A DNA stretch of 64,000 nucleotides from Phycisphaerales bacterium (lineage in GTDB: Bacteria; Planctomycetota; Phycisphaerae; WQYP01). This document shows positions 6,960-47,630 of this stretch, one piece after another (the first letter of the stretch is position 1; each line of letters starts with the position of its first letter). The notes under the pieces were generated by a model. It saw only the letters and a program-made list of their open reading frames with translations. It was not told the origin of the DNA and did no database searches. The stretch lies in NCBI GenBank assembly GCA_027313145.1, contig DAHVEJ010000001.1, forward strand, positions 6,698 through 70,697, in the 5' to 3' direction. The position numbers were made by a program, and so were the translations under genes.

Positions 6960-7063
6960 TTCAATAAAGCGATCCCGAGAGCACCGCGAGGCCCCTTCAC
7001 CGCTGCCCTGACCCGCCGTAGCGTTAGGCAGGAGCCCACCCGCTTGATCCGAAAATAGCCCTT

Positions 7064-7343
7064 GGAGACTGTCCGAGTAATGGCCGGGATTGCGATGGGG
7101 CTGAAATAGCCCGTATTCGCGGCGGAGGATCGAGCTGACTCTGGATAATGAGTCTGCGAGATCCGACAACAAAGCAGACGGGGCATTTCAGGCCCACCCG
7201 CAGGGCGGGATGCTTTTTGGCTCCCCTCTGCGGCGCAGTTCCTCGGCGTACCATCCGTGTCAGGTACGCCATCGTCGCTGCTTCTTGTATGTTGGAGCCA
7301 AAAATCATCCCGGCGCAACCTGGCCATTACTCGGACAGGCTCC
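7064..7343. repeat. Repeat family A, full-length copy: 280-bp element bounded by 22-bp imperfect terminal inverted repeats (GGAGACTGTCCGAGTAATGGCC ... GGCCATTACTCGGACAGGCTCC) with nested internal stems.
   Basis: TIRs at 7064-7085 and 7322-7343. Inner stem TTTTTGGCTCC/GGAGCCAAAAA (7214-7224 / 7294-7304) encloses hairpin GGCGTACC/GGTACGCC. A 145-bp 5' core is repeated at 32047-32192. Confidence 0.7.
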
Positions 7344-7613
7344 TAGATAACGCGGTGGGGTATTCCGGGAACAATGCGGGCAGTTCGAGGCATCAGGAAC
7401 AATGCACCATCATCTGGGCCGGGTGTCAAGAAACAGGTGACTGTCCCTAATTTCAGTGCCCGCCGCAGAATCTGGGGTAACGCTGTTTTCCCCACCCATC
7501 GCTTACATGCTTCAATTCAATTTGAACTTAACAACGCAAGCGGCTCTTGCCACGTCGTCAAGTCTTGCCTATAATCATTCATCAAAGCTCAACTACATTC
7601 TAGGAATGAAGCC

Positions 7614-11173: not shown

Positions 11174-11443
11174 AACGCGTGCGGGAACTGTTTTGGGGTG
11201 CGATGCAATACAGATTTGCGGCAACCCGCCCGAATTCGGAGTTGTGGGAGCATGCATGTCGGTGTAAGTCCTCGTTGCAAATTGTAGATTACGGAACCGC
11301 CCTGATGGTCGGACTGAACAAGCACTTTCACCGTAACGGCGCGAGGCCGGGGTTACAGGTTACGGGCTACGGGCTACGGGTTAAAGTGTCACGTCCTGAT
11401 AAAGGTTGTCACTGTTGGCAACGGAATTATCAGGAGTTTTGGT

Positions 11444-11818
11444 ATGCGTGTACGTGTAATAAAGCGGTATAGTGAGTACTTCAAAAGGCAGGTGGTTGAC
11501 GAGTTGGAGAATGGTCGATTCACATCGATTACCGAGTCGCGGCTTCACCACGGGATTACGGGCGGAACGACGATTCAGACGTGGTTAAAAAAATATGGAA
11601 GGAATCATTTGATGGCGAAGGTGGTACGGGTGGAAAAGCCAGGCGAACAAGATCAGTTACGTGCGTACAAAAAGAGGGTATCGCAGTTGGAGCAGGCCTT
11701 GGGGAAGACTCAGGCGGAGAACCGCCCTCTATTTGAAACGATCAAGACGCTTCTCATGAACGCCTGGGCCGGTAAAAATCCCGGCCTGCTTACCGATGTT
11801 CTGGTCGACTCCTCCTGA
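11444..11818 (+). mobile_element. IS3-family transposase OrfA (HTH/leucine-zipper part) with no OrfB (DDE) following: truncated IS remnant.
   Basis: MRVRVIKRYSEYFKRQVVDELENG... is typical IS3/IS911 OrfA. An inverted repeat CCTGATAA..TTATCAGG and a TGTCACT terminus lie just upstream at about 11395-11435. A permease gene starts 80 bp downstream. Confidence 0.7.
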
Positions 11819-23027: not shown

Positions 23028-24182
23028 ATGGCGAAACGCCGGCTCCAACTGAAAAATATTGCCCGTATTGCCGGGCGCATCGCAGGGGTGCTTCTGGCCA
23101 TACTATTGGTGGTGGCGCTGCTGCTGTGGAGCACGGGAGCGCTTAAGGCGAAAATCTCACCGGGGTCGCTACCGGTGCCAACCACCAAGCCATTCCAGGG
23201 TGCCACGGCCATCGTGGCGGTCCAATCCATTTCGCAGAATCTCCGCGCGGTGGGCACCATCACACCGATCGCACCGGTACTGTTGACACCGCGAATCGTA
23301 GGGCGAATTGTTTTCAGCCGCTTAATCGCCGGTGGCACCGTGCGAAAAGGTCAAGTGCTGGTGCGCCTGGATTCGGCGCAGCTCAAAGCCCAGGTGGCGC
23401 AGACCGCAGCTGCGGTGTTGTTGGCCAAAGCACAATTGCGCCAGGCGTTGATTGACCAGAAGCGGGACAAAACACTGTTAACCACTGGCGATGTCACCAC
23501 GGCAACGATGGATGTGGCAGATACCGCGGTAGCTTCGGATCGCGCGAATCTGGCACATGCCTTGGCGGAAATGCAGGCGGCACAGGCCGTTCTGGGCTAC
23601 ACCACCATCCGCTCGACGATCAACGGAATCGTGATGCAAAAATATGTCAACGTGGGGGATACCGTTATGCCCGGTCAGATGCTGGCCAAACTTTATGATC
23701 CCCATAAACTTCAGTTGGCGGCCGTGGTGCGGGAATCTCTCGCTTCTTTGCTGCACCTGGGGCAAAAGATGTCCGTGCGACTGGAAGGTTTCCACGCCAC
23801 CGTGCAAGCACACATCCGACAAATTGCGCCGCGTGTCAATGCGCAAAGCCGCAGTTTTATTGTGAAAGTTACCGGCAAATTTCCGTCCGGTGTATGGCCG
23901 GGAATGTATGGCAATCTAATTATTCCTACCGGATCGCATAAAGTTTTGGTGGCACCCCAAGCCGCCATTAAGCATATTGGTCAACTGGATCTCGTGACGT
24001 TACTTGTCCATGGGCGTCTGGTGCGTCAAACAGTTCAACCCGGGCGGCATATTGGTTCCATGCGGGAAATTCTTTCCGGCGTGGTAGCCGGACAGCGGGT
24101 GGTCGTGGCGTCCACGAAATCCCAAATCTCAAATCCCAAATCTCAAATGAGTCATTCCACCACCGTGGAGATCAACCCATGA
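23028..24182 (+). CDS. Efflux RND transporter periplasmic adaptor subunit (HlyD/MFP family).
   Basis: N-terminal TM anchor, coiled-coil and lipoyl/beta-barrel regions. Stop overlaps the RND start (ATGA). Confidence 0.85.
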   Translation: MAKRRLQLKNIARIAGRIAGVLLAILLVVALLLWSTGALKAKISPGSLPVPTTKPFQGATAIVAVQSISQNLRAVGTITPIAPVLLTPRIVGRIVFSRLIAGGTVRKGQVLVRLDSAQLKAQVAQTAAAVLLAKAQLRQALIDQKRDKTLLTTGDVTTATMDVADTAVASDRANLAHALAEMQAAQAVLGYTTIRSTINGIVMQKYVNVGDTVMPGQMLAKLYDPHKLQLAAVVRESLASLLHLGQKMSVRLEGFHATVQAHIRQIAPRVNAQSRSFIVKVTGKFPSGVWPGMYGNLIIPTGSHKVLVAPQAAIKHIGQLDLVTLLVHGRLVRQTVQPGRHIGSMREILSGVVAGQRVVVASTKSQISNPKSQMSHSTTVEINP

Positions 24183-27613: not shown

Positions 27614-27840
27614 CCCCGTTACGCCCGCGTTTATCTTCGTGATCCGTTATATTTGACATTTGGTTATTTAGGTTTACCACGAAGCTATTTCCTGATCCAG
27701 ATAATATTGTTTGTTACCGCCAGCGTGGCGGAGCCGGGAGTCAGAAGTTAGGAGTTGGGAGTTAGGAGAATGCAGCGCTGCGCTTCACTCAATGGCCAAC
27801 GGCCAAGGAACCATGAGCAAATTAAAAGGAATTCCATTTT

Positions 27841-28075
27841 TCTGATTATTGATCATTGATCTTTGATCATTGACTTGGGCGCGGAAACCCCGCGGCCCGG
27901 AGCGCAGAAAGCGCCGACGGAATTGGCTTTCAGAGATTGTTTCATCCCCGGCAACCATGCTGTAATGTTCACCTTTCCACTGCTCGCCTGTTCTATTGGG
28001 CCGCCGCCCAATCCGCTCTACTTTCAACTCTCTACTGCTCGCCTGCTCTAATCGGGCCGCAGCCCGATTTGTACT
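27841..28075. repeat. Compound repeat: TGATCA cluster (27849-27872) plus two REP-like palindromic units (27978-28016 and 28033-28073, each with hairpin GGGCCGC(A/C)GCCC).
   Basis: Reverse complement of the REP doublet recurs at 36563-36660. The second unit overlaps the last codons of argF. Confidence 0.7.
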
Positions 28076-29004
28076 GCCAGCAGGGCCTTCTGGAAATGGA
28101 GGCGGTTTTCGGCTTGTTGAAATACGATGCTGCGGTCAAAATCCATGGCTTCATCGGTTATTTCCACGCCCCGATACGCCGGCAGGCAGTGCATGACTAC
28201 CGCATGGGCCGGGGCGGCGGAAATGAGTTTGGCGTTAATCTGGTAGGGGGTAAAAATCTTCATCCGCTGGGCTTTTTCAGTTTCCTGTCCCATACTGACC
28301 CAGGTGTCGGTGTAAATAATATCCGCGGCAGCAACCGCCGCCATGGGGTCGGTGGTAGCCTGAAAATCAAATCCCGGAATGCTGGATGCGGCTTGAACAT
28401 CGGACGCGTGCAGTTCATAACCAACGGGCGCGGCGATACGGAATTTCAATCCGAACACCGCGCAGGCTTCCATGAGTGATCGGGCGACATTGTTGCCATC
28501 GCCCACGTACGCCAGCGTCAGGTCGGAAAGAGATCCGAAGTGTTCGCGAATGGTCAGCAGATCGGCCATGACCTGACAGGGATGGCTGCGGTCGCTAAGG
28601 GCGTTGGTGACGGGGCGATTGCTGAAACGGGCCAGTTGCACAATGGTGTCATGGGCAAATGTCCGGGCCATAATGGCGTCACAGAATCCCGAAAGAACGC
28701 GTGCGGCGTCAGGGACGCTTTCGCGCGTGCCTAAGCCGATTTCACCGGGGGTAATGTAAATGGCGGCCCCGCCCAGATGCGTCATGGCCACTTCAAAACT
28801 CACCCGTGTGCGCAACGAGGGCTTTTCAAAAATCATGGCCAGGGTTTTGCCCGCGGCGACGGGGTCATTGCGTCCCGTGGAGCGGTATTGTGCTTTAAGC
28901 CGTTGGGCCACGGCCAGCAGATGCTCCAGCGTGGCGCGTGGCATGCCGAGAATGTCAATGAAATCAAATTTGCCGCCCGACGGCGCGCTGTTGGTCTGGT
29001 TCAT
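28048..29004 (-). CDS. argF: Ornithine carbamoyltransferase.
   Basis: STRTR carbamoyl-phosphate binding motif and an HCLP motif. Confidence 0.92.
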   Translation of the reverse strand: MNQTNSAPSGGKFDFIDILGMPRATLEHLLAVAQRLKAQYRSTGRNDPVAAGKTLAMIFEKPSLRTRVSFEVAMTHLGGAAIYITPGEIGLGTRESVPDAARVLSGFCDAIMARTFAHDTIVQLARFSNRPVTNALSDRSHPCQVMADLLTIREHFGSLSDLTLAYVGDGNNVARSLMEACAVFGLKFRIAAPVGYELHASDVQAASSIPGFDFQATTDPMAAVAAADIIYTDTWVSMGQETEKAQRMKIFTPYQINAKLISAAPAHAVVMHCLPAYRGVEITDEAMDFDRSIVFQQAENRLHFQKALLAVQIGLRPD

Positions 29005-29061
29005 GATAACGCCTCAGTTCAGATTATATATCCGCTGATATTGGGATAAATACTCATGTCA

Positions 29062-29955
29062 TTAAGATCGGATAATTTCCGTGCCCACGCCCTGATCGGA
29101 ATAAATTTCCAGCAGCAGGGAATGGGGAAATCGGCCGTCGATAATATGTGTTTTCTGCACGCCGCCATCCAGGGCAATAAAACAGGCCTCCACTTTGGGC
29201 AGCATTCCTTCGCCGATATTTCCCGCCGCCACAAGTTTCTCAATTTCCTCGCGGGAAACGCTGCGTAGAAGGGAAGCGGGATCATCCTTGCGCCGGCGTA
29301 TACCGTGCGTATCGGATACCAGCACCATTTTCTCCGCCCGGCATGCGGCGGCGACAAATCCGGCGGCGGTATCGGCGTTGACATTGAGCTTGCCGCCCGC
29401 GTTATCCAGGGCGATTGGGGCAATGACCGGGATATAGTCCGCCGCGGCCAGGGCCTGCAGCAATTCCGAGTTCACGCGCGTAATCTGCCCGACGCGGCCA
29501 ATATCAATGCGTGGATTGTTTTGATCGGATAAGTACAGTTTCTCGGCAAATAATACCGCGCTACCCAGCGAATTTAACTGCATGGCCTTGCCGCCAAGTT
29601 CACCGATGGTCTGCACAATAAACGTATTGATGTCATTGACCAGCACATGCTCCGCAATGGCCAACGTGCGGTCATCGGTATAGCGGCGGCCCATAACAAA
29701 CTGGGCCTCAATGCCCGCTTCGTTCATGGCCTGCGTGATCGCTTTGCCTCCGCCATGCACCACCACCGGCCTCATGCCCACGGCATGCATAAATACAATG
29801 TCAGTAAGGACCTTGCGGAATTCCTCGCGGGAATCCATAAATGAACCACCGAGCTTAACGACCACAATTTTCTCGTTGAAACGCTGGATATATCCCAACG
29901 CCTCAATAAGCGAGCCGGCTTTATCAAGAATTGTTTTATCCATGGCCACGTCCAA
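29062..29955 (-). CDS. argB: Acetylglutamate kinase.
   Basis: VVKLGGS amino-acid kinase motif. Full-length similarity. Confidence 0.92.
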   Translation of the reverse strand: MDVAMDKTILDKAGSLIEALGYIQRFNEKIVVVKLGGSFMDSREEFRKVLTDIVFMHAVGMRPVVVHGGGKAITQAMNEAGIEAQFVMGRRYTDDRTLAIAEHVLVNDINTFIVQTIGELGGKAMQLNSLGSAVLFAEKLYLSDQNNPRIDIGRVGQITRVNSELLQALAAADYIPVIAPIALDNAGGKLNVNADTAAGFVAAACRAEKMVLVSDTHGIRRRKDDPASLLRSVSREEIEKLVAAGNIGEGMLPKVEACFIALDGGVQKTHIIDGRFPHSLLLEIYSDQGVGTEIIRS

Positions 29956-30268
29956 GGGAAACTCCCATTAAAATGTAGGGTTCATCTAACTCCGCGCGGC
30001 TGGAAAATAAGCCGCCCCCGGCTTGTTCCGTCAAGCGTGGAGGCCTCATTAAGTATCCAATATTCCCGCGCAGGGAACAAACAGGGCGATGAGAATACGA
30101 TTGCTTGGCGTACAAAGCAAGGTTTTCCCGGCAGAAAAGGTCGAAATTTTTGGTGCCACCCCCCAAAATTGCCCGAATTTCAGCAATAAACTAAAAACAC
30201 GCCGCTTTGTCACTTGAAACTGCCCTGCCTTTGCCACTAGCATCATGCGGTGATCAATGTGATGTTGT

Positions 30269-31666
30269 TTGGATTACACAATGCCTTTGGATTCTATCTT
30301 GCAGGAAACGCCCCATACCCCCGGCCCTCCGATTCTTGACCCGCGCCCTTACAGCCGAAAAGATGCCGGCGATGTACTGGCGGTAGGCTTGGCCACCACC
30401 GTTTTGATGTGGTCAGTGGGGTACATTTTCCGCATGCCCGGAGACCGTGTGCCCGCACCGCTGATACTGGCGGCACTGGTGGCCATACTCATCGGTGGCG
30501 GCTTTATGGGCGCTTGGCGCACGCGCCGCGGGCCGATTGGCGGATTATGGGTTGGATTGATCAGTGGATCATTGAATCTTCTGGTGCTGGGTTCATTGGG
30601 CAGAGACCTTACCACTGACCATCGCATTATTGCTTATGAATTTCTCTGGGCACCCGTGAGTGTGATTTCCGCCGGGCTTCTGGCGTGGATCGGGGGTTTT
30701 TTTGGTGCCCGGTTAAATCCGGAGCGGCGGCAATATCTGCATCCGGAAGGTTCGCTGACGCTTTCGACCGGAATTGCGACCTTGGTTTTGATTATGGCCG
30801 GCGGCATGGTGACGGGCCTGAATGCCGGGCTTTCCGTGCCGGATTGGCCGGATTCATTTCGCTTCGGCATGTTCTTTTTCCCGTTATCCCACATGACCGG
30901 CGGCGTATTTTTTGAACATACCCACCGCCTGTTCGGCACGCTGGTGGGGCTGGCCACACTCATTCAAACCATTTATTTATTCCGGCATGAAAGCCGACGC
31001 TGGGTTAAGTGGACATCTTTTATCGCTTTGATCATGGTTATTTTTCAAGGCCTTATGGGCGGCTTGCGCGTCACGGGGCATTTTACGCTGGCCAAATCCC
31101 GGCTCGGAATGGACCCCAGCACCCCGCTGGCCATTATTCACGGGGCATTTGGCCAGGTATTTTTTGCGGTGTTGGTGGTCCTGGCGGCGGTGTGCTCTCC
31201 CAGTTGGACCAGCAACCTGCAGCCTAAGCCGCGATTAAGCGCAAAAATTGGCCGCAGTATGGCGTGGGCACTGGTGGGTGTACTTCTGGTGCAGTTGACG
31301 CTGGGAGCCATTCTACGACACGTCGGGGGCGTCCTGCTTTTGCATATCAGCGTTGCCGTCATTGTTCTGCTGCTGGCTCTGTTTTCCGGTGCGCGCGCCT
31401 GGGGGTTAAACCCGGACCAACTGATTCTTAAACGCGTCGGCCTGGCTTTGCTTTGCGTCGTGTCGCTGCAGGTACTTTTGGGCGTCTGCGCGGTGATCGC
31501 CCTGGGCGGGGGCGGTCCTCTGGAGCATCCAGATATGGCCCAAGCGGTCGTGACCACCGCGCATCAGACCACCGGTGCGGTGCTGCTGGCTATTGCGGTG
31601 CTGCTGGCCGTCTGGACCGTGCGGCTGGAATCGCCGGTTAGCCTGAAGCATCTGGAATCTATATAA
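30269..31666 (+). CDS. COX15/CtaA-family heme A synthase-like membrane protein with an N-terminal extension.
   Basis: Polytopic, with conserved His-containing motifs (EHTHRLFG, HGAFGQ, LLLHISVA). Confidence 0.6.
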   Translation: MDYTMPLDSILQETPHTPGPPILDPRPYSRKDAGDVLAVGLATTVLMWSVGYIFRMPGDRVPAPLILAALVAILIGGGFMGAWRTRRGPIGGLWVGLISGSLNLLVLGSLGRDLTTDHRIIAYEFLWAPVSVISAGLLAWIGGFFGARLNPERRQYLHPEGSLTLSTGIATLVLIMAGGMVTGLNAGLSVPDWPDSFRFGMFFFPLSHMTGGVFFEHTHRLFGTLVGLATLIQTIYLFRHESRRWVKWTSFIALIMVIFQGLMGGLRVTGHFTLAKSRLGMDPSTPLAIIHGAFGQVFFAVLVVLAAVCSPSWTSNLQPKPRLSAKIGRSMAWALVGVLLVQLTLGAILRHVGGVLLLHISVAVIVLLLALFSGARAWGLNPDQLILKRVGLALLCVVSLQVLLGVCAVIALGGGGPLEHPDMAQAVVTTAHQTTGAVLLAIAVLLAVWTVRLESPVSLKHLESI

Positions 31667-31701
31667 TAACACCGGCAAAATGAATCAGGAGATTCATAAA
31701 C

Positions 31702-31938
31702 ATGAATCTATGCGACAATTTTTCTCGCAAACTTAACTTTCGTTGCATATTGGTGTTGACGGCAATAGCTTCGATGCTCATGCTTGGCGGGTGCCAAGAG
31801 GAGCTTTTCAGCGGACGTGACCAGAATATTCAGGGAAAATCACAGTATTTTCCCGATCCGCACCCGATTGAGCAATCCCATTCCGATACGGGCACAGGCG
31901 GAGGGGCAATGCCCTTTGGCGGTCAGAATGGATTCTAA
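31702..31938 (+). CDS. Small hypothetical lipoprotein.
   Basis: Signal peptide with an LGGC lipobox. Confidence 0.4.
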   Translation: MNLCDNFSRKLNFRCILVLTAIASMLMLGGCQEELFSGRDQNIQGKSQYFPDPHPIEQSHSDTGTGGGAMPFGGQNGF

Positions 31939-32046
31939 TGTTTCGCGATTGTGCTTTGTCGCCCCTGATTTTCAGGCTTTACCCACCGCTTTAATCTCCC
32001 GATAAGCTCGTACATTTGTCTTAAGGCTACCTCGCCGCATAAGATA

Positions 32047-32192
32047 GTCTAGGTGCCTGCCTTTCCGAGTAATGGCCGGGATTGCGATGGGTTTGAAATG
32101 CGCCGTATGCGATACGGTTGATCGAGCCGACTCTGAATAAGTAAGTCCGCGAGATTCGACAACAAAGCTGGCGGGGCATTTCAGGCCACCCG
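32047..32192. repeat. Repeat family A, partial copy (5' 145-bp core only, no right terminal repeat).
   Basis: Matches the left TIR and core of 7064-7208 at about 85% identity with small indels. Confidence 0.7.
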
Positions 32193-32246
32193 CGATGCGA
32201 CGGCCCGTCGGATAATGTTTGTAGTGCTGCCGATTCAGGACGAAGT

Positions 32247-32936
32247 ATGGCCAAGACCGTAAGTGAACAACAACTTAACCCTGATGAGGGGCAGGAATAT
32301 CTTAATATTCTTGAACCCCTGCTGCAGGCGGGTGATTTAAATCGGACGGCGGAATGTATTAAACAGTTCTGGTGCGGGGGCAAACTGTGCGCATTTTTAA
32401 CGCACGACGAGCCGGAAGTTCGCCGCGCGGCGGCCATGGGATTAACCCTGGTCGGAAATACGCGAGCCATTGATCCACTGGTTACCGCGCTTCATGATAC
32501 GGATTTGCGGGTTTCTGAACTGGCCCAGGATGCGCTATGGGCGATCTGGTTTCGTGCGGGCAACGCCCGTGCCTGCGGCCACCTCAAGTGCGGAGCACAC
32601 CATCTCAAGCACGGAAATCTGGATGCGGCGATGGAAAAATTTAACCTCGCCATTCAGGTCGATCCCGGATTTGCCGAGGCGTACAATCAGCGAGCCATTG
32701 CTGAATATCTGGCGGAGCGATATACCGATTCCATGGAGGATTGTCGCCGGACATTGGCCATTATTCCGCGGCATTTCGGGGCCATGGCCGGCATGGGCCA
32801 TTGCCATGCCAACCTGGGAAATTTTCCCGATGCGCGGCAATGTTACTGCCAGGCTCTGGAAATCAACCCGCTTATGGATGGCATCGCGGCAGCTCTGGAA
32901 AAGATTCAGGCACTGCTGGAAAAACCGGCGGCTTAA
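32247..32936 (+). CDS. HEAT-repeat plus TPR-repeat protein.
   Basis: PBS-lyase HEAT-like repeats (EVRRAAAMGL.., DLRVSELAQDAL) followed by TPR-like repeats. Confidence 0.55.
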   Translation: MAKTVSEQQLNPDEGQEYLNILEPLLQAGDLNRTAECIKQFWCGGKLCAFLTHDEPEVRRAAAMGLTLVGNTRAIDPLVTALHDTDLRVSELAQDALWAIWFRAGNARACGHLKCGAHHLKHGNLDAAMEKFNLAIQVDPGFAEAYNQRAIAEYLAERYTDSMEDCRRTLAIIPRHFGAMAGMGHCHANLGNFPDARQCYCQALEINPLMDGIAAALEKIQALLEKPAA

Positions 32937-32946
32937 GCGATTTTTA

Positions 32947-33723
32947 TTATTCTATCAGCGCCCGGCCAAACAGTCGCACGGCATTGGCGGAAGTAATTTC
33001 ACCGGTTTGTTCGATTGTCCACCCGCGTTCGGCGGCGACACGTTCGGCCACATACGCGGTAAATGCCGGCTCATTGGGTTTTATTTTTCGCACCGCCTGG
33101 GGGGTCAGGTAAGGCGCATCGGTTTCAATAAGTAAACGATCTTCCGGAACCAGTTTGCACGCCTCACGCACATCCGGGGCGTTTTTGTAGGTAATAACCC
33201 CGGTAAACCCGATGTACGCCCCCAATTCCAGCCATTGCGCACATTGCTCGGGTGTGCCGGTAAAACAATGCACCACAAAACGCATATTCGCGTGCCGGCG
33301 CATAATTTCCAAAGCATCCGCATGGGCGTCGCGCACATGGAGAATCATCGGCATACGTAATTGCTCGGCAAGATCAATCTGCCGCTGGAATACGGTTTTC
33401 TGCACCGGCGGCAGAGCCGAATTGCCATGATAATCAAGCCCGCATTCACCCACCGCCAGCACCTTTGCCGAACTGCCTATTGCGTATTGCAATTCATCGA
33501 CAAAATTTTCCGCGGCCTCGCCGGCATAATGCGGGTGAATACCCAGCGCCCCAAAAACTTGTCCATGCGCACCAAGCGTTTCCAGTACCCGTGGGTGATC
33601 CGCTGGATGCGTGCCAATGCAGATCATCCGAAACACGCCCGCCACAATCGCGCGTTGCACCACCTCCGCCTGCCGCTCTTCCAGGCCCTCATACGTAAGA
33701 TGGCAATGTGTATCAATCAACAT
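32947..33723 (-). CDS. tatD: TatD-family metal-dependent hydrolase/DNase.
   Basis: MLIDTHCHL start and conserved His/Glu/Asp positions. Confidence 0.9.
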   Translation of the reverse strand: MLIDTHCHLTYEGLEERQAEVVQRAIVAGVFRMICIGTHPADHPRVLETLGAHGQVFGALGIHPHYAGEAAENFVDELQYAIGSSAKVLAVGECGLDYHGNSALPPVQKTVFQRQIDLAEQLRMPMILHVRDAHADALEIMRRHANMRFVVHCFTGTPEQCAQWLELGAYIGFTGVITYKNAPDVREACKLVPEDRLLIETDAPYLTPQAVRKIKPNEPAFTAYVAERVAAERGWTIEQTGEITSANAVRLFGRALIE

Positions 33724-34106
33724 AACGGGATTTTACCATACCGCCACGTCACAGGGGAGATCTGAAAGCCCACCGGCCCGGCCGGAGCGGACGAGGGCAT
33801 CGGCGGCGCATTGGGATTTGGAACACTCGTGGTATACTCCTTTCAGCAGGTCCCGGTGCCCCGGGAGATCGGGACCCGTGGCCGTTGAATCCGTCCCGGA
33901 AAACCGAGGCGTGGCTTCGTTGGTGGGCCAGACGGGCGATCGAAAAACAGGCCCGACGGCAATTACCTCTTCGAGCTCGAAGCTCAACCGGGTATTACCC
34001 GTGGGCTGGTCAGATACGACGGCGGGCTCAAAGCCCATAAGCATACTCGACCGGCCCCGAACTGATCGGCCCTGATCCATGCCCGCTTTTTAATTACGAA
34101 CAAATT

Positions 34107-35195
34107 ATGCGATTGACCGAATCCAGTTCGTCCCGTACCCAGTGGCATAAGCATAACAAATTCCCTGCGCAAAACGGAACTCGCTTTCACAGAACCAATC
34201 AACCCGAAACATGTCATGCCCGGTACGACGCCTTCGGCAACGCCTTGGGCTTCAATGCGGCCACCGCATTAACAACATATCTGTACAGCTCAATGCCGTA
34301 TGATGCGGCCAGCGGCAATCACTACGACCACGCCCGGTTCTACGATTCCAGCACCGGCGAATTCACACAATCGGATTATGGCTACGCAGGTTCGCTTGCC
34401 AATCCGATGACTGATCTGCCGTACGCCTTCACCGGCGGCGATCCGATAAACATGCTGGATTTGAGTGGGAATGGCTTTAGCCTGCCGGATGTAATAGTCG
34501 CTATGGGGATTATTTCGACGCTGGGTGGGCCTAGCATCGGCGGCTTCGGCGCTGCAACGGGAGGGAGTCTCCTTCCCGACGCGGCGATATTTGGGTTCAG
34601 AATTACCTTGGACCGACAGCAGTTTGCCCGCTTCGGTTCTAACGTCGCCCTCGCGCTCGCCGGGGTCGGCGATGTCTCACCATTCTCGATGGTGCTCTCG
34701 GAGCTCGCGGGGTTCTTGGGCACGTTGAACTCGGAAATAGCAGGCCTGGTCGGCGGCAGTGCCTCTGCCGGGGTCACTGCGGGCCTTGAACTCATCGCAG
34801 ACCGCAAGGATGAGGTGCTGGGTGTCTACGGGTTCGTCGGTGCCGCTGTAGGAGTTTCTGCGGGGAGTGGGAACGTGAGCACGTCCATCTACGACGGCGT
34901 GGTCTGGGACGTGCCTAAATGGACGGACTACGCAGGTCCGTTTATTACGGTCGGCGGGACGGTCAGCCCCGGGATGCTCGGCGCAGGGGTCAACTATTTT
35001 TATGCGGTCGGCAACCCGAGCCAGCACGGCATTCTTACTTCGTTGAGCCAAGGTGCCGGGAGCGGCCTCGGCGGGTCGTATACGAAGTACAGAGCACTCG
35101 ACGAGGTCGGCCAAGGGCCAGGGGCGGTTCTGCCGTGGTTGGAGCTCTCGTGGCCACCGCCTTATGACTTCCTGATGCCATTGAATCTTGGTTGA
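34107..35195 (+). CDS. Orphan RHS/YD-repeat C-terminal fragment: end of the RHS core fused to a glycine-rich variable C-terminal (putative toxin) domain. N-terminally truncated.
   Basis: RYDAFGN, YDAASGN and ARFYDSSTGEFTQSD...DLPYAFTGGDPINMLDLSGN match the RHS-core terminus (RxYDPxxGRFxxxDP...NLYxYxxNNPxNxxDPxGL). An in-frame stop 23 codons upstream leaves no long N-terminal RHS body. Confidence 0.7.
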   Translation: MRLTESSSSRTQWHKHNKFPAQNGTRFHRTNQPETCHARYDAFGNALGFNAATALTTYLYSSMPYDAASGNHYDHARFYDSSTGEFTQSDYGYAGSLANPMTDLPYAFTGGDPINMLDLSGNGFSLPDVIVAMGIISTLGGPSIGGFGAATGGSLLPDAAIFGFRITLDRQQFARFGSNVALALAGVGDVSPFSMVLSELAGFLGTLNSEIAGLVGGSASAGVTAGLELIADRKDEVLGVYGFVGAAVGVSAGSGNVSTSIYDGVVWDVPKWTDYAGPFITVGGTVSPGMLGAGVNYFYAVGNPSQHGILTSLSQGAGSGLGGSYTKYRALDEVGQGPGAVLPWLELSWPPPYDFLMPLNLG

Positions 35196-35201
35196 GGCGC
35201 C

Positions 35202-36110
35202 ATGGCGCGTAGGAGGCTATCCATGAGGTTATTTTCAACCGTCCGTTCGCTCTTTTCGACTTTGGCAATCTTGGCGGGCCTGGCGGCGGCCCTGTCCTTC
35301 GTAGCCGATTTTGCGTTGACCTATTCGCACGGGGGCGGGGTCACTCCGTACACGCGCGAATCGAGTGGACACTATTTTCTAGTCGCGCACGGGGCATCGT
35401 ATCAGGTTTCGGGTACCTTATTTTGGCCCGCTTGGTGGCTTGAGCGTATCGTTTTTGGAGGCTGCGCAGCTTTATTGGTGGAGCTCGTGATAGAGGTAAT
35501 TTCAGTGCTTTGGTACGGCGCTCGAGGATTGCCCCCGCCGCAGAGTGCGGTGCCACTCCGGATGAACGGCAAACGCGGCGAACGCGCGGCCGCCGTGGAA
35601 CATCCTAATATCCTGTGGTCCGAGCCTTATCTTTACGAGATCCGAAGGCTGCCGCGCCCGGCGGCATTATATTCATGGGTACCGGGCCGTGTCGTCATGG
35701 CGGTCTTTGCCTTCACGGCGGTGATCTTTGCATCCTGCGCGGCAGCGCAATACGCCGCTGGCCAGCCGCACCGCGCTGTGGCAGGCCTCTGGTCCTTCGC
35801 GGCCATCTGGCTGCTGGTCGTGGTGCTTGCTGGGGCGGTGGGAGCTGCCTGTTACCTGGCGCTGGTGCTCGCCCCGGCGGGCGTGTTCATCTGGAAAGGC
35901 AAACTCCTGCTAGAGAAACCACCGGCATCGCTGAGTCCGGACGATATTGATCGAGTCGTTGTTGAGTTCCCCGAGCACGGTTACGGGATTGTCCAGGTTC
36001 ACACAAGGAAGGGAATACGCACAGTGGGAATACCCGCTGGGACAAACCTAGCGGAGCTGCAAAATTTTTTGGGGGAAAAGGTTTCGGTGACGAAGGATGG
36101 GCGGCAATGA
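35202..36110 (+). CDS. Membrane protein, candidate immunity protein for the adjacent RHS C-terminal domain.
   Basis: Sits immediately downstream (7 nt) of the toxin tip, with multiple TM helices and no other recognisable domain. Confidence 0.4.
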   Translation: MARRRLSMRLFSTVRSLFSTLAILAGLAAALSFVADFALTYSHGGGVTPYTRESSGHYFLVAHGASYQVSGTLFWPAWWLERIVFGGCAALLVELVIEVISVLWYGARGLPPPQSAVPLRMNGKRGERAAAVEHPNILWSEPYLYEIRRLPRPAALYSWVPGRVVMAVFAFTAVIFASCAAAQYAAGQPHRAVAGLWSFAAIWLLVVVLAGAVGAACYLALVLAPAGVFIWKGKLLLEKPPASLSPDDIDRVVVEFPEHGYGIVQVHTRKGIRTVGIPAGTNLAELQNFLGEKVSVTKDGRQ

Positions 36111-36245
36111 CCGTACTCGCCGATGACAGCTACAGGTATGGCGCTGATGGTTTGAAAACTGGAGCCGTGGAATACACGCTGAGTGTGGACGGCAGCCCTG
36201 GCACCATAACCTCGTCGCGGAATTATGACGCGCTGGATCGTTAAT
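36108..36245 (+). pseudogene. Residual YD-repeat (RHS) fragment, 45 codons.
   Basis: Translation ...SYRYGADGLKTGAVEYTLSVDGSPGTITSSRNYDALDR contains two YD-repeat units. Start overlaps the previous stop (ATGA). Confidence 0.55.
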
Positions 36246-36524
36246 ACAGGAAGTGTCCAGCGATGGTGCCAGAACAGCAGTGCCGAACCGCACCGGGAAA
36301 GCGAAACCGGGACGTGATTAGTTAATTGAGATAGCGGCAGATTTAGTGGTTTACTGGATTGTGGTTGGCGCGGCGATAAAATGGATGGCATTCTGATGCT
36401 TGGGTGGCCGCAGCGGTTGCGGGGTGCCGGGATGGATCGGGTTCCCACCCCCGTCCTCCGCTTTCCTCCACCGCCAACCGTGGTGAATTCCGTCGTGTCT
36501 GCGTGCCTTCTGAAACGGCCGATT

Positions 36525-36665
36525 ACAATGATCAATGATCGATGAACACTGATCAATAACAGGGCAAATCGGGCTGCGGCCAGATTAGAGCAGGTGAGCA
36601 GCGCAGAGTTGAGGAGTCGAACGGATTGGGCTGCGGCCCAATAGAACAGGTGAAGTTAGAGAGTT
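36525..36665. repeat. Compound repeat: TGATCA cluster (36528-36560) plus REP-like doublet in inverted orientation relative to 27978-28073.
   Basis: CAAATCGGGCTGCGGCCAGATTAGAGCAGGTGAGCAG is the reverse complement of 28036-28073. The second unit at 36623-36660 matches 27978-28016. Confidence 0.7.
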
Positions 36666-37384
36666 GAACGGTCGAGCAAATAAGGCTGATAGCAAAAGGG
36701 CGGTTGTCGCCGAAAGGGGAAACTTCTTCTGCGACCGGTTGGCTGTTTACTGCTCCGAGATTTGTATGGTCCGGATTTATTCCGAAAGTCGAAACACTTT
36801 CAGTGTCGCGTGCACTCCGAGGGACAAGGAATCTCTGCCGTGCGCACACCGAAGGCGATTGTTTCTATTTGGTTCGCTCAATGCCCAATAGCCGACCATG
36901 ACGCGCAACAAACTGATCCGTTGTGAAATGTAACGGGCACGTAACGAGTTTATAAAAGTGGCGGCGGCTTTAGCTGTTGCTGGATTGTGCTTGGCGCGGC
37001 GGCAATCGCGATGCTGAGTGCCGCCCCGGCGGTGAGAAAGTTGATGGTATCCGGCAGGCGGCGTTGCGCTTAATGGACAATGAGTAACAAAACGGCCCCG
37101 GCGCGGGGCATTCATGAGACGTAGTGGGGGGCGCCGCTTATAGGTTTTAGGTTGCGGATCGCTTTGGGGTACGGGGCCGGGCGGGCGCGCGGGCACGATG
37201 CCCGCGGCTTAATGGGTGGCGGTGCGCGGGATTATGCGTGGTTTTTTCCGCACCGATTTGTCCCGAGCACGACCAATCCCGGCGCGGCTTAATTGGATGC
37301 GGAAATCGGATTGACCACACCGTACACGTTGCAGAGAAAGGAGTTTATTCCAGGCGCGCCGGGATGGATGTTTACAATCTCCAA

Positions 37385-37470
37385 TGATCACTGATCACGG
37401 ATCACGGATCAATGGCCACAGATCAAAAAATCTGGAACCTCCGATATTTTGTTCATCGATCATTGGTCTT
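37385..37470. repeat. Third TGATCA/GATC cluster (at least 7 GATC in 90 bp), ending in the family-A terminal motif GGCCATTGGTCGGACAGGCTCC (37499-37520).
   Basis: Direct reading of the sequence. Resembles the 27849-27872 cluster (GATCATTGGTCTTTGGTCTTTGA vs GATCATTGATCTTTGATCATTGA). Confidence 0.6.
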
Positions 37471-37553
37471 TGGTCTTTGAGCGAAGCGCCCACGGTCGCG
37501 ATTCCGGCCATTGGTCGGACAGGCTCCCGGATTTCGTCAGGAAACGGCGCGGA

Positions 37554-38369
37554 TCACGCGTTGATGCGGCCTTCCCAAGGGCTGCTGGCGGTGGCGTAGA
37601 GTTTGCGGGGAATGCGGCCGGCTTCGTAGGCCAGGCGGCCGGATTCGGTGGCCAGCATCATGGCGCGGGCCATTTTGGCGGGTTCGGCTGCTGCGGCCAC
37701 GGCTGTATTTAATAATACTGCGTCAACGCCTAATTCCATCGCTGCCGCTACATCGCTGGCGGTGCCCACGCCGGCATCCACAATAACCGGATACGTTGGA
37801 TCATTTTCCTTCAACTGCTCAAGAATAATGCGAATGGCGTTGGGATTCAGCACGCCCTGCCCCGAACCGATGGGTGAACCCGCGGGCATAACCGCGGCGG
37901 CACCGGCTTCTTTAATGCGTTTGCACAGCATGACATCGTCCGAGCAGTAAACCAGAACCTGAAAGCCGTCCTTAACCAGTGTCTTCAAGGCTTCCAGGGT
38001 GCCAACGGGTTCGGGGAGAAGTGTTTTGGTATCTCCCAGGCATTCCAGTTTTACCCAATCGGCACCGCGGTAGCCCGAGCCGGTTAACATTTCGCGGCCT
38101 AATTTCGCCACGCGCACCACTTCTTCGGCGTTAAAACAGCCGGCGGTGTTGGGCAGGAGAATGTATTTTTGCGGATCAATAAAATCCAGAATATTGCGGC
38201 CGGAATTTTTATCCAGCAGTCGCTCGCGCCGCACGGCGACCGTAACAACTTGTGCTCCGCTTTCGTGGTGGCATTTCTGCATGAGTTCCAGAGAACTGTA
38301 TTTGCCCGTACCGACAATCAGTCGGGATTGCAATTCGTAAGGTCCGATTTTCAAGGTTGTGGATGTCAT
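37554..38369 (-). CDS. thiG: Thiazole synthase.
   Basis: Full-length ThiG similarity ([19 protein letters not shown]...). Confidence 0.95.
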
Positions 38370-47362: not shown

Positions 47363-47421
47363 CGGATAGAATGATAATTGCTGTCGCGGCAAATGGCAAG
47401 CGTGGCAGCGTGTCGCGTGAT

Positions 47422-47630
47422 GGAGCACCGTGGTGATAACCCGGCGGTTGGCTTGCGGCATGAGATCAACCACCGGATTACCATCCGGTGCTATGCGGAC
47501 GCGTCCGGTTAAAGAAAAAAGGTACCTGACACCTTTTTTCATGGCCGTGGCATAGAGCACCGTGGTGATAACCCGGTGGTTGGCTTGCGGCATTGGATCA
47601 ACCACCGGATTACCATTCGGTGCTCTTGAG
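47422..47630. repeat. Two 75-bp direct repeats (47422-47495 and 47557-47630, about 90% identical). Each contains hairpin CACCGG-ATTACCAT-CCGGTG. They are separated by an A/T-flanked bidirectional terminator-like hairpin (47509-47536).
   Basis: Direct reading. Lies in the divergent intergenic region between the ArsR-methyltransferase gene and manA. Confidence 0.65.

Follow-up and report, generated by a model that had tools for sequence, protein, structure and literature searches.

Inverted hairpin doublets beside argF in an uncultured planctomycete as probable decayed copies of a modular intergenic repeat family

We have analyzed a stretch of 64,000 nucleotides (the window) from contig DAHVEJ010000001.1 of an uncultured Phycisphaerales bacterium. 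Two short hairpin-bearing repeats lie in it in opposite orientation, at the ends of an 8.5-kb interval, one at the argF gene (copy 1) and one near 36.6 kb (copy 2), and both are accompanied by clusters of TGATCA. The question raised by this layout is whether the pair is a device, such as an invertible segment or a methylation-sensitive regulatory site, or a pair of dispersed repeats. We consider it likely that the two sites are decayed members of a lineage-specific family of modular intergenic repeats. The modules of this family, named R, H, X and Z, are separated by tandem heptamer runs; the family is multi-copy and extragenic, occurs in tandem arrays and in larger composites, and has no bias of orientation with respect to genes. 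It is thus an ordinary dispersed repeat, uncatalogued as a family, of a kind already known. Nothing in this analysis points to a switch, to an invertible segment or to an epigenetic site, and the finding as first posed matters little. Features of the window are listed in Table 1.

Hairpin-bearing tandem units are present at both sites, as had been proposed. In copy 1 two units lie head to tail at 27957-28072 (+), each a pyrimidine-rich heptamer-like stretch with a hairpin (8-bp stem, 4-nt loop) at the unit end; copy 2 is a two-unit arrangement on the opposite strand, 36564-36654 (-). The tandem period of the doublets is 55 bp (repeat family D4) instead of the 40 bp first described, and the hairpin ATCGGGCCGCAGCCCGAT, ascribed earlier to every unit, is that of the second unit of copy 1, the first having ATTGGGCCGCCGCCCAAT. 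A covariance model of the hairpin, run with filters off, found exactly 4 R modules in the 64 kb, with E values from about 5e-10 to 3e-8, the rest being noise; the two sites are indeed homologous and inverted. They are not exact reverse complements of each other, as had been claimed: complementarity of the arms is 87% (53 nt) and 90% (39 nt), and the longest exact run they share, in an alignment inspected by eye, is 18 bp. Copy 1 consists of two R-only units, and copy 2 of a near-complete H+R unit followed by an R-only unit; the full unit extends to 36754, past the end originally given for this copy.

The family was sampled by searching for an exact pattern in 185,579 genomes, each standing for one bacterial species; 26 loci were returned. 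Six related metagenome-assembled genomes (MAGs), five labelled Planctomycetota or Phycisphaerales and one Acidobacteria, hold 23 of these; the remaining three loci, in Brevundimonas, Spirochaeta and Geminicoccus, lack all flanking family features and are probable chance matches. The closest relative found for the source planctomycete is MAG YP3.bin105; look-ups of exact proteins gave no record for argF or thiG, and tatD was met only on short metagenome contigs. In the 237 kb of the window and the loci (L numbers below), the covariance model gave 59 matches, among them echoes of the palindromic R modules on the reverse strand. Metagenomic argF loci with a protein identity of 88% or below, 80 in all, gave no family match. 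A phage origin was rejected, as the R and H patterns were unmatched in viral contigs. The contig labelled Acidobacteria bacterium FK2.bin41 (L001, JAJYVR010000238.1) has 78-90% identical DNA, and the same composites, as the Planctomycetota MAG ZJ5.bin40 (L014, L019); either this contig is mis-binned or its taxon label is wrong. Repeats such as these break assemblies and mislead binning, of which this MAG is an example.

The anatomy of the element was taken from an alignment (A1) of 22 full units, in which 40 columns are invariant. A full unit is about 140 bp long and non-coding, and consists, in order, of a purine-rich heptamer arm (AGTAGAG or CAGGTGA types), ACCGCAGG with a short variable stretch, the H module, a pyrimidine-rich arm (CTCTACT or TCACCTG types) and the R module. 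R is the hairpin CTGCTCTAATCGGGCCGCAGCCCGATT, and H is a conserved head of 45 nt, GTCTCGGCGACAGCCACTCTTTTGCGCCAGCCGAATTTGCTCTAC. Since the purine-rich runs lie 5' of H and the pyrimidine-rich runs 3', a full unit can fold as a long hairpin, and such folds are obtained on either strand with z from -3.1 to -4.5. For the window copies the margin over shuffled sequences is small (z -1.3 to -2.3), and they are thus taken to be decayed. In the R stem, 97% of cells are paired across 55 distinct copies, and C-G to U-A compensation is seen in 6 sequences; informative G-U wobble variants, which were biased by the search pattern, are too few to point to a functional strand. Applied to the family units, RNAalifold returned the R hairpin only, with no conserved structure in H and a covariation term near 0.

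Several other identities were considered and rejected. By eye, the arms seemed to pair unit by unit (AGTAGAG with CTCTACT, CAGGTGA with TCACCTG), but a permutation test of duplex energies gave means of -18.6 kcal/mol for self arms and -18.3 kcal/mol for non-self arms (p 0.39). A small open reading frame (ORF) in H behind an AGGAGG motif was dropped because its frame differs among units and because of 1-3-nt indels. A CRISPR array was excluded, as the would-be spacers are conserved between copies and between genomes and each window site has two units; no Cas protein family was matched among ten scanned ORFs of 24-41 kb. Rfam 15 gave no match in the window at the gathering score. At E<=1 the L011 array yielded tRNAs and two sub-threshold matches overlapping the first tRNA, and window positions 36100-37600 yielded one chance-level match (E=1); with no Rfam match for the repeat units, a known RNA family was rejected. 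A description of the family was not found in the searchable literature.

Copies of the family are intergenic, apart from an overlap of 21 nt with the end of argF. They occur as single units, as R-only multimers of 55 bp (e.g. L007) and as arrays of ~140-bp units; four units in L011 and three in L017 lie upstream of the same tRNA gene, and another tRNA precedes the L011 array. Compared with the gene that lies on their R side, 11 copies are co-oriented and 9 convergent. This is essentially the ubiquitous, randomly oriented background of repeats that the original prediction had named as the outcome that would speak against it, and the inverted layout of the two window copies is a coincidence, since any two copies have 50% odds of being inverted. 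Between the MAGs ZJ5.bin40 and JA4.bin8, which are 10-14% diverged, the element is found at orthologous sites in five locus pairs, with differences in the number and kind of modules.

The modules are also assembled into larger composites. Window positions 27684-28068, which make up a whole intergenic stretch, match a multi-copy composite in L001, L014 and L019 with the order left block, heptamer-filled slot, X block (two small GC hairpins), R(A), R(B). The slot is filled by GGAGTTA in the window versus (GCATCTC)n in other copies of the composite. The identity of positions 27879-28068 is 87% with L001 4144-4331, and 82-85% with five other sites, three of them in L019 and two in L014. In five composite copies (L001, L014 and three in L019) R(B) is followed by the Z block, CCCTGTTTTTGATCAGTGCTCATCGATCATTGATCATTGTAACCGGCC, which is also found in window copy 2 and so has six copies across the genomes. 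The TGATCA run beside copy 2 lies inside this block and is therefore a conserved part of the repeat.

Copy 1 overlaps the last codons of argF, as had been noticed: the hairpin of its second unit (28051-28068) covers the final six codons, reading IGLRPD on the reverse strand, and the adjoining module bases CTA (28048-28050) form the TAG stop. In two related loci, L020 (95% identical DNA) and L003 (90%), R likewise lies over the argF end and the protein tail is ...LLAVQIGLRPD*. The modules upstream of this R differ: the window has R+R, L020 has H+R, and L003 has a full unit whose arms are of the TGATCA type. The argF ortholog of L031 (88% protein identity) ends in ...LLAVQLGGQ* and has no R module; more distant orthologs, with tails such as ...GHA* and ...GGA*, have none either. 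The argF copy is old, because L020 and L003 carry the same hairpin-encoded tail IGLRPD*, and R would have joined the argF 3' end, by insertion or recombination, after the split from L031, since L031 and the distant orthologs are without it. One insertion may have swapped the native end (GGQ*) for the hairpin-encoded LRPD*, that is, four new codons and a stop. L031 represents one empty site, of which a single junction is visible before the contig ends. The locus would then be a clean case in which a repeat insertion rewrote both the final codons and the stop in a housekeeping gene and was kept over at least 10% divergence. The neighbouring acrB-argF spacer is an indel hot spot: its heptamer-rich part (window 27641-27898) is replaced in L020 (369-1147) by 778 bp in which, by eye, there appear to be a truncated PIN-like ORF and a small ORF resembling an antitoxin.

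The heptamer runs that separate the modules form a second layer of repetition. The window has 7 period-7 runs of at least 3 copies each, compared with 0.25 in shuffled sequences, and periods 5, 6 and 8-12 give 0-1 run each, so that period 7 is specifically over-represented, as in the heptameric intergenic simple sequence repeats (SSRs) of other bacteria. Tandem Repeats Finder (TRF) placed the period-7 arrays at 27737 (GGAGTTA), 27843 (TGATCAT), 36526 (CAATGAT), 37386 (GATCACG), 37463 (TTGGTCT), 11350 (GGGTTAC) and 24117 (AAATCCC). In the family loci such runs number 20 per 100 kb. An excess of intergenic heptamer repeats is known in Xanthomonas and Nostoc, with polymerase slippage proposed as the cause (PMC4692102); they are pervasive here too, often as long hairpins at gene borders. 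One run, (AAATCCC/AAATCTC)n at 24117-24148, lies inside the C-terminal tail of an RND adaptor ORF (23028-24182), beyond residue 363 of 384, where the family profile ends, a heptamer repeat absorbed into coding sequence. The 80 metagenomic argF loci of distant relatives have 8.7 period-7 runs per 100 kb, versus about 1 for periods 6, 8 and 9. In some of these loci inverted pairs of runs form very stable hairpins beside the argF start or stop (L034 2889-2965, L036 1166-1243, L055 1273-1371 and L072 961-1030, with z of -10.4, -9.9, -5.4 and -3.2, respectively), with a different heptamer at each locus.

Table 1. Repeat modules, heptamer runs and associated features of the window
Feature	Position	Strand	Description
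Left block 'a'	27684..27735	+	88% identical over 52 nt to L019 4582-4633, which also lies ahead of a heptamer slot and X block
Heptamer run (GGAGTTA)n	27737..27768	+	TRF period 7, 4.6 copies; fills the variable heptamer slot of the composite
Heptamer run (TGATCAT)n, first TGATCA cluster	27843..27873	+	TRF period 7, 4.4 copies, 87% matches; 3 GATC
X block	27878..27965	+	two small GC hairpins, then GGCAACCATGCT...
R-only unit A1	27957..28016	+	pyrimidine heptamers and hairpin ATTGGGC-CGCC-GCCCAAT (27995-28012); nhmmer E 1.5e-5; covariance model R1 47.2 bits, E 3e-8
R-only unit B1	28010..28072	+	hairpin ATCGGGC-CGCA-GCCCGAT (28051-28068); covariance model 55.9 bits
argF (ornithine carbamoyltransferase)	28048..29004	-	Pfam OTCace, OTCace_N; TIGR00658 363 bits, profile end at residue 312 of 318
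Strain-variable segment	33775..36930 (~3.2 kb)		orphan Rhs core-plus-toxin tip 34107-35195, ORF 35202-36110, non-coding patchwork, copy 2
Z block	36517..36563	-	contains second TGATCA heptamer run (36526-36557); TRF period 7
R module B2	36564..36598	-	one-mismatch hairpin ATCTGGC...GCCCGAT; covariance model 56 bits, E 4.8e-10
Full family unit in copy 2	36625..36754 (130 bp)	-	nhmmer profile positions 7-136, E 3.6e-21; row window_c2 of alignment A1; parts: degenerate 5' arm, H head (TTCGGCGACAACCGCCCTTTTGCTATCAGCCTTATTTGCTCGAC), pyrimidine heptamers, R module A2 (36621-36654)
Third GATC cluster	37382..37480		imperfect inverted pair (TGATCAC/GGATCAC)n and (TTGGTCT)n with Z-like fragment; TRF; inverted repeat I10

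Among known systems the closest parallel is found in the repetitive extragenic palindromic (REP) sequences of proteobacteria and the bacterial interspersed mosaic elements (BIMEs) made of them. These too are short (~20-40 bp), conserved, imperfect palindromes, extragenic and multi-copy, often placed at gene 3' ends, with compensatory changes in the stem, and they form mosaic arrays of variable composition with other conserved motifs. The planctomycete units are short, conserved, hairpin-forming, mostly extragenic and multi-copy, and the term REP-like was right in kind. The modules are, however, separated by tandem heptamers, unlike those of REP/BIME. REP superfamilies carry an unpaired GTAG or CGTC tetranucleotide beside the stem (Di Nocera et al. 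2013, PMC3733652), whereas no such tag flanks the R stem, which reads CTCT|AATCGGGC...GCCCGATT|(C/T/G)G on one strand and ...|AGAG on the other, and GTAG is found only in the distant heptamer arms. REPINs are mostly inverted doublets that form a hairpin (PMC3116915), in contrast to the doublets and multimers of this family, which run head to tail with a period of 55 bp (R-only) or ~140 bp (full units). No gene for the REP-associated tyrosine transposase (RAYT) was seen in the ~250 kb examined, in a weak search with an IS200 TnpA sequence.

Two further systems share part of the design. The BOX elements of Streptococcus pneumoniae are modular repeats of the form boxA-boxB(n)-boxC, and resemble the family in having an internal module of variable number (here, pyrimidine heptamers plus R, repeated one to four times), an intergenic position, stable-hairpin potential and no encoded protein; sequence and phylum are unrelated, however, and BOX lacks a heptamer microsatellite component. 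The intergenic heptameric SSRs (the STRR of heterocystous cyanobacteria, GGGAATC of Xanthomonas and GGGGAYT of Nostoc; PMC4692102) have the same intergenic excess of period 7, are sometimes inverted pairs able to form stem-loops, and vary in length and sequence among close relatives. In contrast to these, the planctomycete has many heptamers per genome, interleaved with the conserved R, H, X and Z modules. The family can be likened to a REP/BIME or BOX mosaic joined to heptamer repeats of the STRR type. What is added here is a previously uncatalogued mosaic repeat family of the poorly studied uncultured Planctomycetota, with no Rfam entry and no GTAG or CGTC tag.

The history that best fits these observations would be that of a repeat family of the REP/BIME/BOX kind that spread at the DNA level as non-autonomous DNA and is now largely past moving, its present change being mainly slippage in the heptamer runs and unequal recombination between modules. 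Any role today would most likely be a generic one; the hairpin clusters, placed between convergent 3' ends, could act as RNA 3'-end barriers or as terminators without a U-tract. Several points weigh against this account. The census loci were picked with an exact pattern from this same window and are therefore a biased sample. A tblastn search of the window and 30 loci (~250 kb) for RAYT/IS200 genes gave a best E value of 3.4, a weak test made with an IS200 TnpA query. No clean pair of empty and filled sites with a target duplication was recovered among the loci compared, so that mobility is inferred, and the stability of orthologous positions over 10-14% divergence argues against recent transposition. 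The R hairpins have no T-run and failed a simple intrinsic-terminator scan; a terminator role is predicted only. Finally, a model that is purely selfish or neutral does not account for the strong conservation of H (45 nt with no supported structure), which is a hint of a binding site or of a function as RNA.

The alternative that survives best, although we think it unlikely, is that the modules are host-selected terminators or protectors of mRNA 3' ends, whose copy number reflects selection for hairpin clusters between operons. Both window sites, like the third GATC cluster, do lie between convergent 3' ends (acrB-like against argBF at copy 1; Rhs/ORF against thiG at copy 2), compensatory changes are seen in the R hairpin, and in distant relatives three of the heptamer-run hairpins beside the argF start or stop reach z of -10.4, -9.9 and -5.4. 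Hairpin clusters without U-tracts have moreover been proposed as intrinsic terminators across phyla (PMC8355165). However, about half of the copies lie upstream of the next gene and are co-oriented with it, some of them within 0-7 nt of a predicted start; tandem arrays with as many as 4 units, and the conserved, unstructured H, X and Z, exceed what a terminator needs; and T-runs are absent. A sigma-70 promoter or an intrinsic terminator at the window sites was rejected after scans, which found no sigma-70 promoter-like site and no terminator-like match coinciding with an R hairpin.

Rather unlikely, to our minds, is the reading of H and R with their generic heptamer arms as an undescribed class of foldback-type mobile element or structured non-coding RNA. 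If it were true, the heptamer runs would be made and kept complementary by a dedicated mechanism, beyond passive slippage, and the very stable, locus-specific heptamer-run hairpins at gene borders of related lineages could be read in the same way. Among known elements, miniature inverted-repeat transposable elements (MITEs) and foldback elements are a further partial parallel: the full unit is likewise non-coding and ~140 bp long, with complementary arms and a long hairpin fold (z -3 to -4.5). Its arms, however, are generic purine/pyrimidine heptamer runs with no unit-specific matching, and no parent transposon is known. Neither a target-site duplication nor a complete empty site was recovered.

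A third reading, which we hold to be quite improbable, makes each H+R unit a small-RNA gene, with H as the body and R as the terminator, amplified in tandem like other multi-copy small-RNA arrays. The 40 invariant columns show that H is highly conserved across paralogs, the reading direction is always from H to R, the arrays are co-oriented with tRNA genes, and some units have TTGACA 17-18 nt upstream of TCTTAT or TCTTTT. Such promoter-like hexamers are missing from most units, however, and the RNAalifold and Rfam results given above (no conserved structure in H, no family match even at E<=1) speak against an RNA product, just as the indels and frame shifts exclude a peptide. The window copies are moreover decayed, H being lost in copy 1 and degraded in copy 2.

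The suggestion that the GATC/TGATCA clusters respond to methylation of the Dam type, or are bound by a regulator that recognizes TGATCA, is highly improbable on the indirect evidence that sequence can give, and no feature of the clusters calls for methylation to explain it. The runs themselves are present, at 27843-27873, 36526-36557 and 37382-37480, which places three clusters of GATC-bearing heptamers within 10 kb, and TGATCA is in mild excess in the window (24 versus 14.4 expected, a count reached by 3 of 100 shuffles). GATC as such is at expectation, however (283 observed, 301 expected, a ratio of 0.94), and the first two clusters have 3 GATC each, as do ten other places in the window (3 per 60 bp). 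The clusters are period-7 tandem heptamer microsatellites, and the density of GATC, singled out earlier as a special feature, is a by-product of one heptamer flavour that carries it: three of the seven runs (GGGTTAC, AAATCCC and GGAGTTA) have no GATC, and the same composite slot holds different heptamers in different copies. The run at copy 2 belongs to the Z block, and the clusters lie at the 3' ends of convergent genes, away from promoters. As for the placing of the runs directly before the doublets, the one at copy 2 does adjoin its doublet, but the first lies ~95 bp away; relative to the element the two flank opposite sides, so that there is no fixed inverted unit of cluster plus doublet. 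The third cluster lies 74 nt beyond the thiG stop, folds at -34 kcal/mol (z -2.0) and is 97% conserved in L028.

Least credible of all is flipping of the 8.5-kb argF-to-Rhs segment by the inverted pair, an idea that is already largely refuted: two homologous inverted copies do lie 8.5 kb apart, but the arms are just 87-90% identical with no exact match over 18 bp, no inversion junction was found in the four relatives that reach past the interval (L020, L003, L027 and L028), copy 2 is missing from the closest strains (L027, L028), and none of the annotated interior genes, which are housekeeping genes, is a recombinase. An exact identity of 18 bp is short for efficient homologous recombination (minimal processing segments). 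L020 and the window are collinear across the left junction, and so are L027 and L028 with the window across the right side, tatD being joined to the thiG side in window orientation. L003 is collinear through the interior, and its left neighbour is a different gene without a match in the window, which makes this an indel or rearrangement between the genes there, as opposed to an exchange involving copy 2. No recombinase was found among argF, argB, a ctaA-like gene, a TPR protein, tatD and the Rhs tip; the interior ORFs 35202-36110 and 32027-32470 have no family match.

The absence of copy 2 from the closest strains is part of a larger difference. In L027 and L028, metagenome contigs that are 99% identical to the window on both sides, the segment from 33775 to ~36930 is replaced by ~300-400 bp of different sequence. 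Strains of 99% identity are present in samples SRR25885106 and ERZ27237454. The Rhs tip in this segment matches TIGR03696 Rhs_assc_core with 38 bits (cutoff 32.5) and has a glycine-rich C-terminal region after the core; the next ORF, 35202-36110 (302 aa), is unannotated. The segment looks like an orphan toxin tip and immunity cassette, the 302-aa ORF being possibly the immunity protein. Variation from strain to strain is known for loci of this type. The copy-2 stretch is bracketed by an imperfect direct duplication of ~70-100 bp, ~75% identical (36291-36375 and 36932-37031, family D9), and the duplicated block is single copy in the 99%-identical strains.

Three other elements of the window may be recorded. 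A MITE-like element of ~285 bp at 7061-7344 has terminal inverted repeats of ~25 bp (GGAGnCTGTCCGAGTAATGGCCGG ... CCTGGCCATTACTCGGACAGGCTCC), with partial copies as a left-end fragment at 32059-32193, inside the 8.5-kb interval, and a right-end remnant at 37496-37530, which abuts the thiG stop beside the third GATC cluster; homologs are found in L005 and L027-L029. A short ORF at 11445-11818 (MRVRVIKRYSEYFKRQVVDELENG...) resembles, by eye, the orfA of IS3-family elements (helix-turn-helix and leucine zipper); the (GGGTTAC)n run at 11350-11383 lies just ahead of it, and it is 95% identical to DNA of MAG WY1.bin60 (L024). Finally, a tandem pair of conserved hairpins of ~75-80 nt, at 47412-47492 and 47551-47626 (z -5.9), with a T-run terminator-like stem-loop between them, has no Rfam match; three loci in two further MAGs (L010, L015 and L025) conserve it at 86-92%, and it may represent a second family of palindromic repeats or an RNA that is not annotated.

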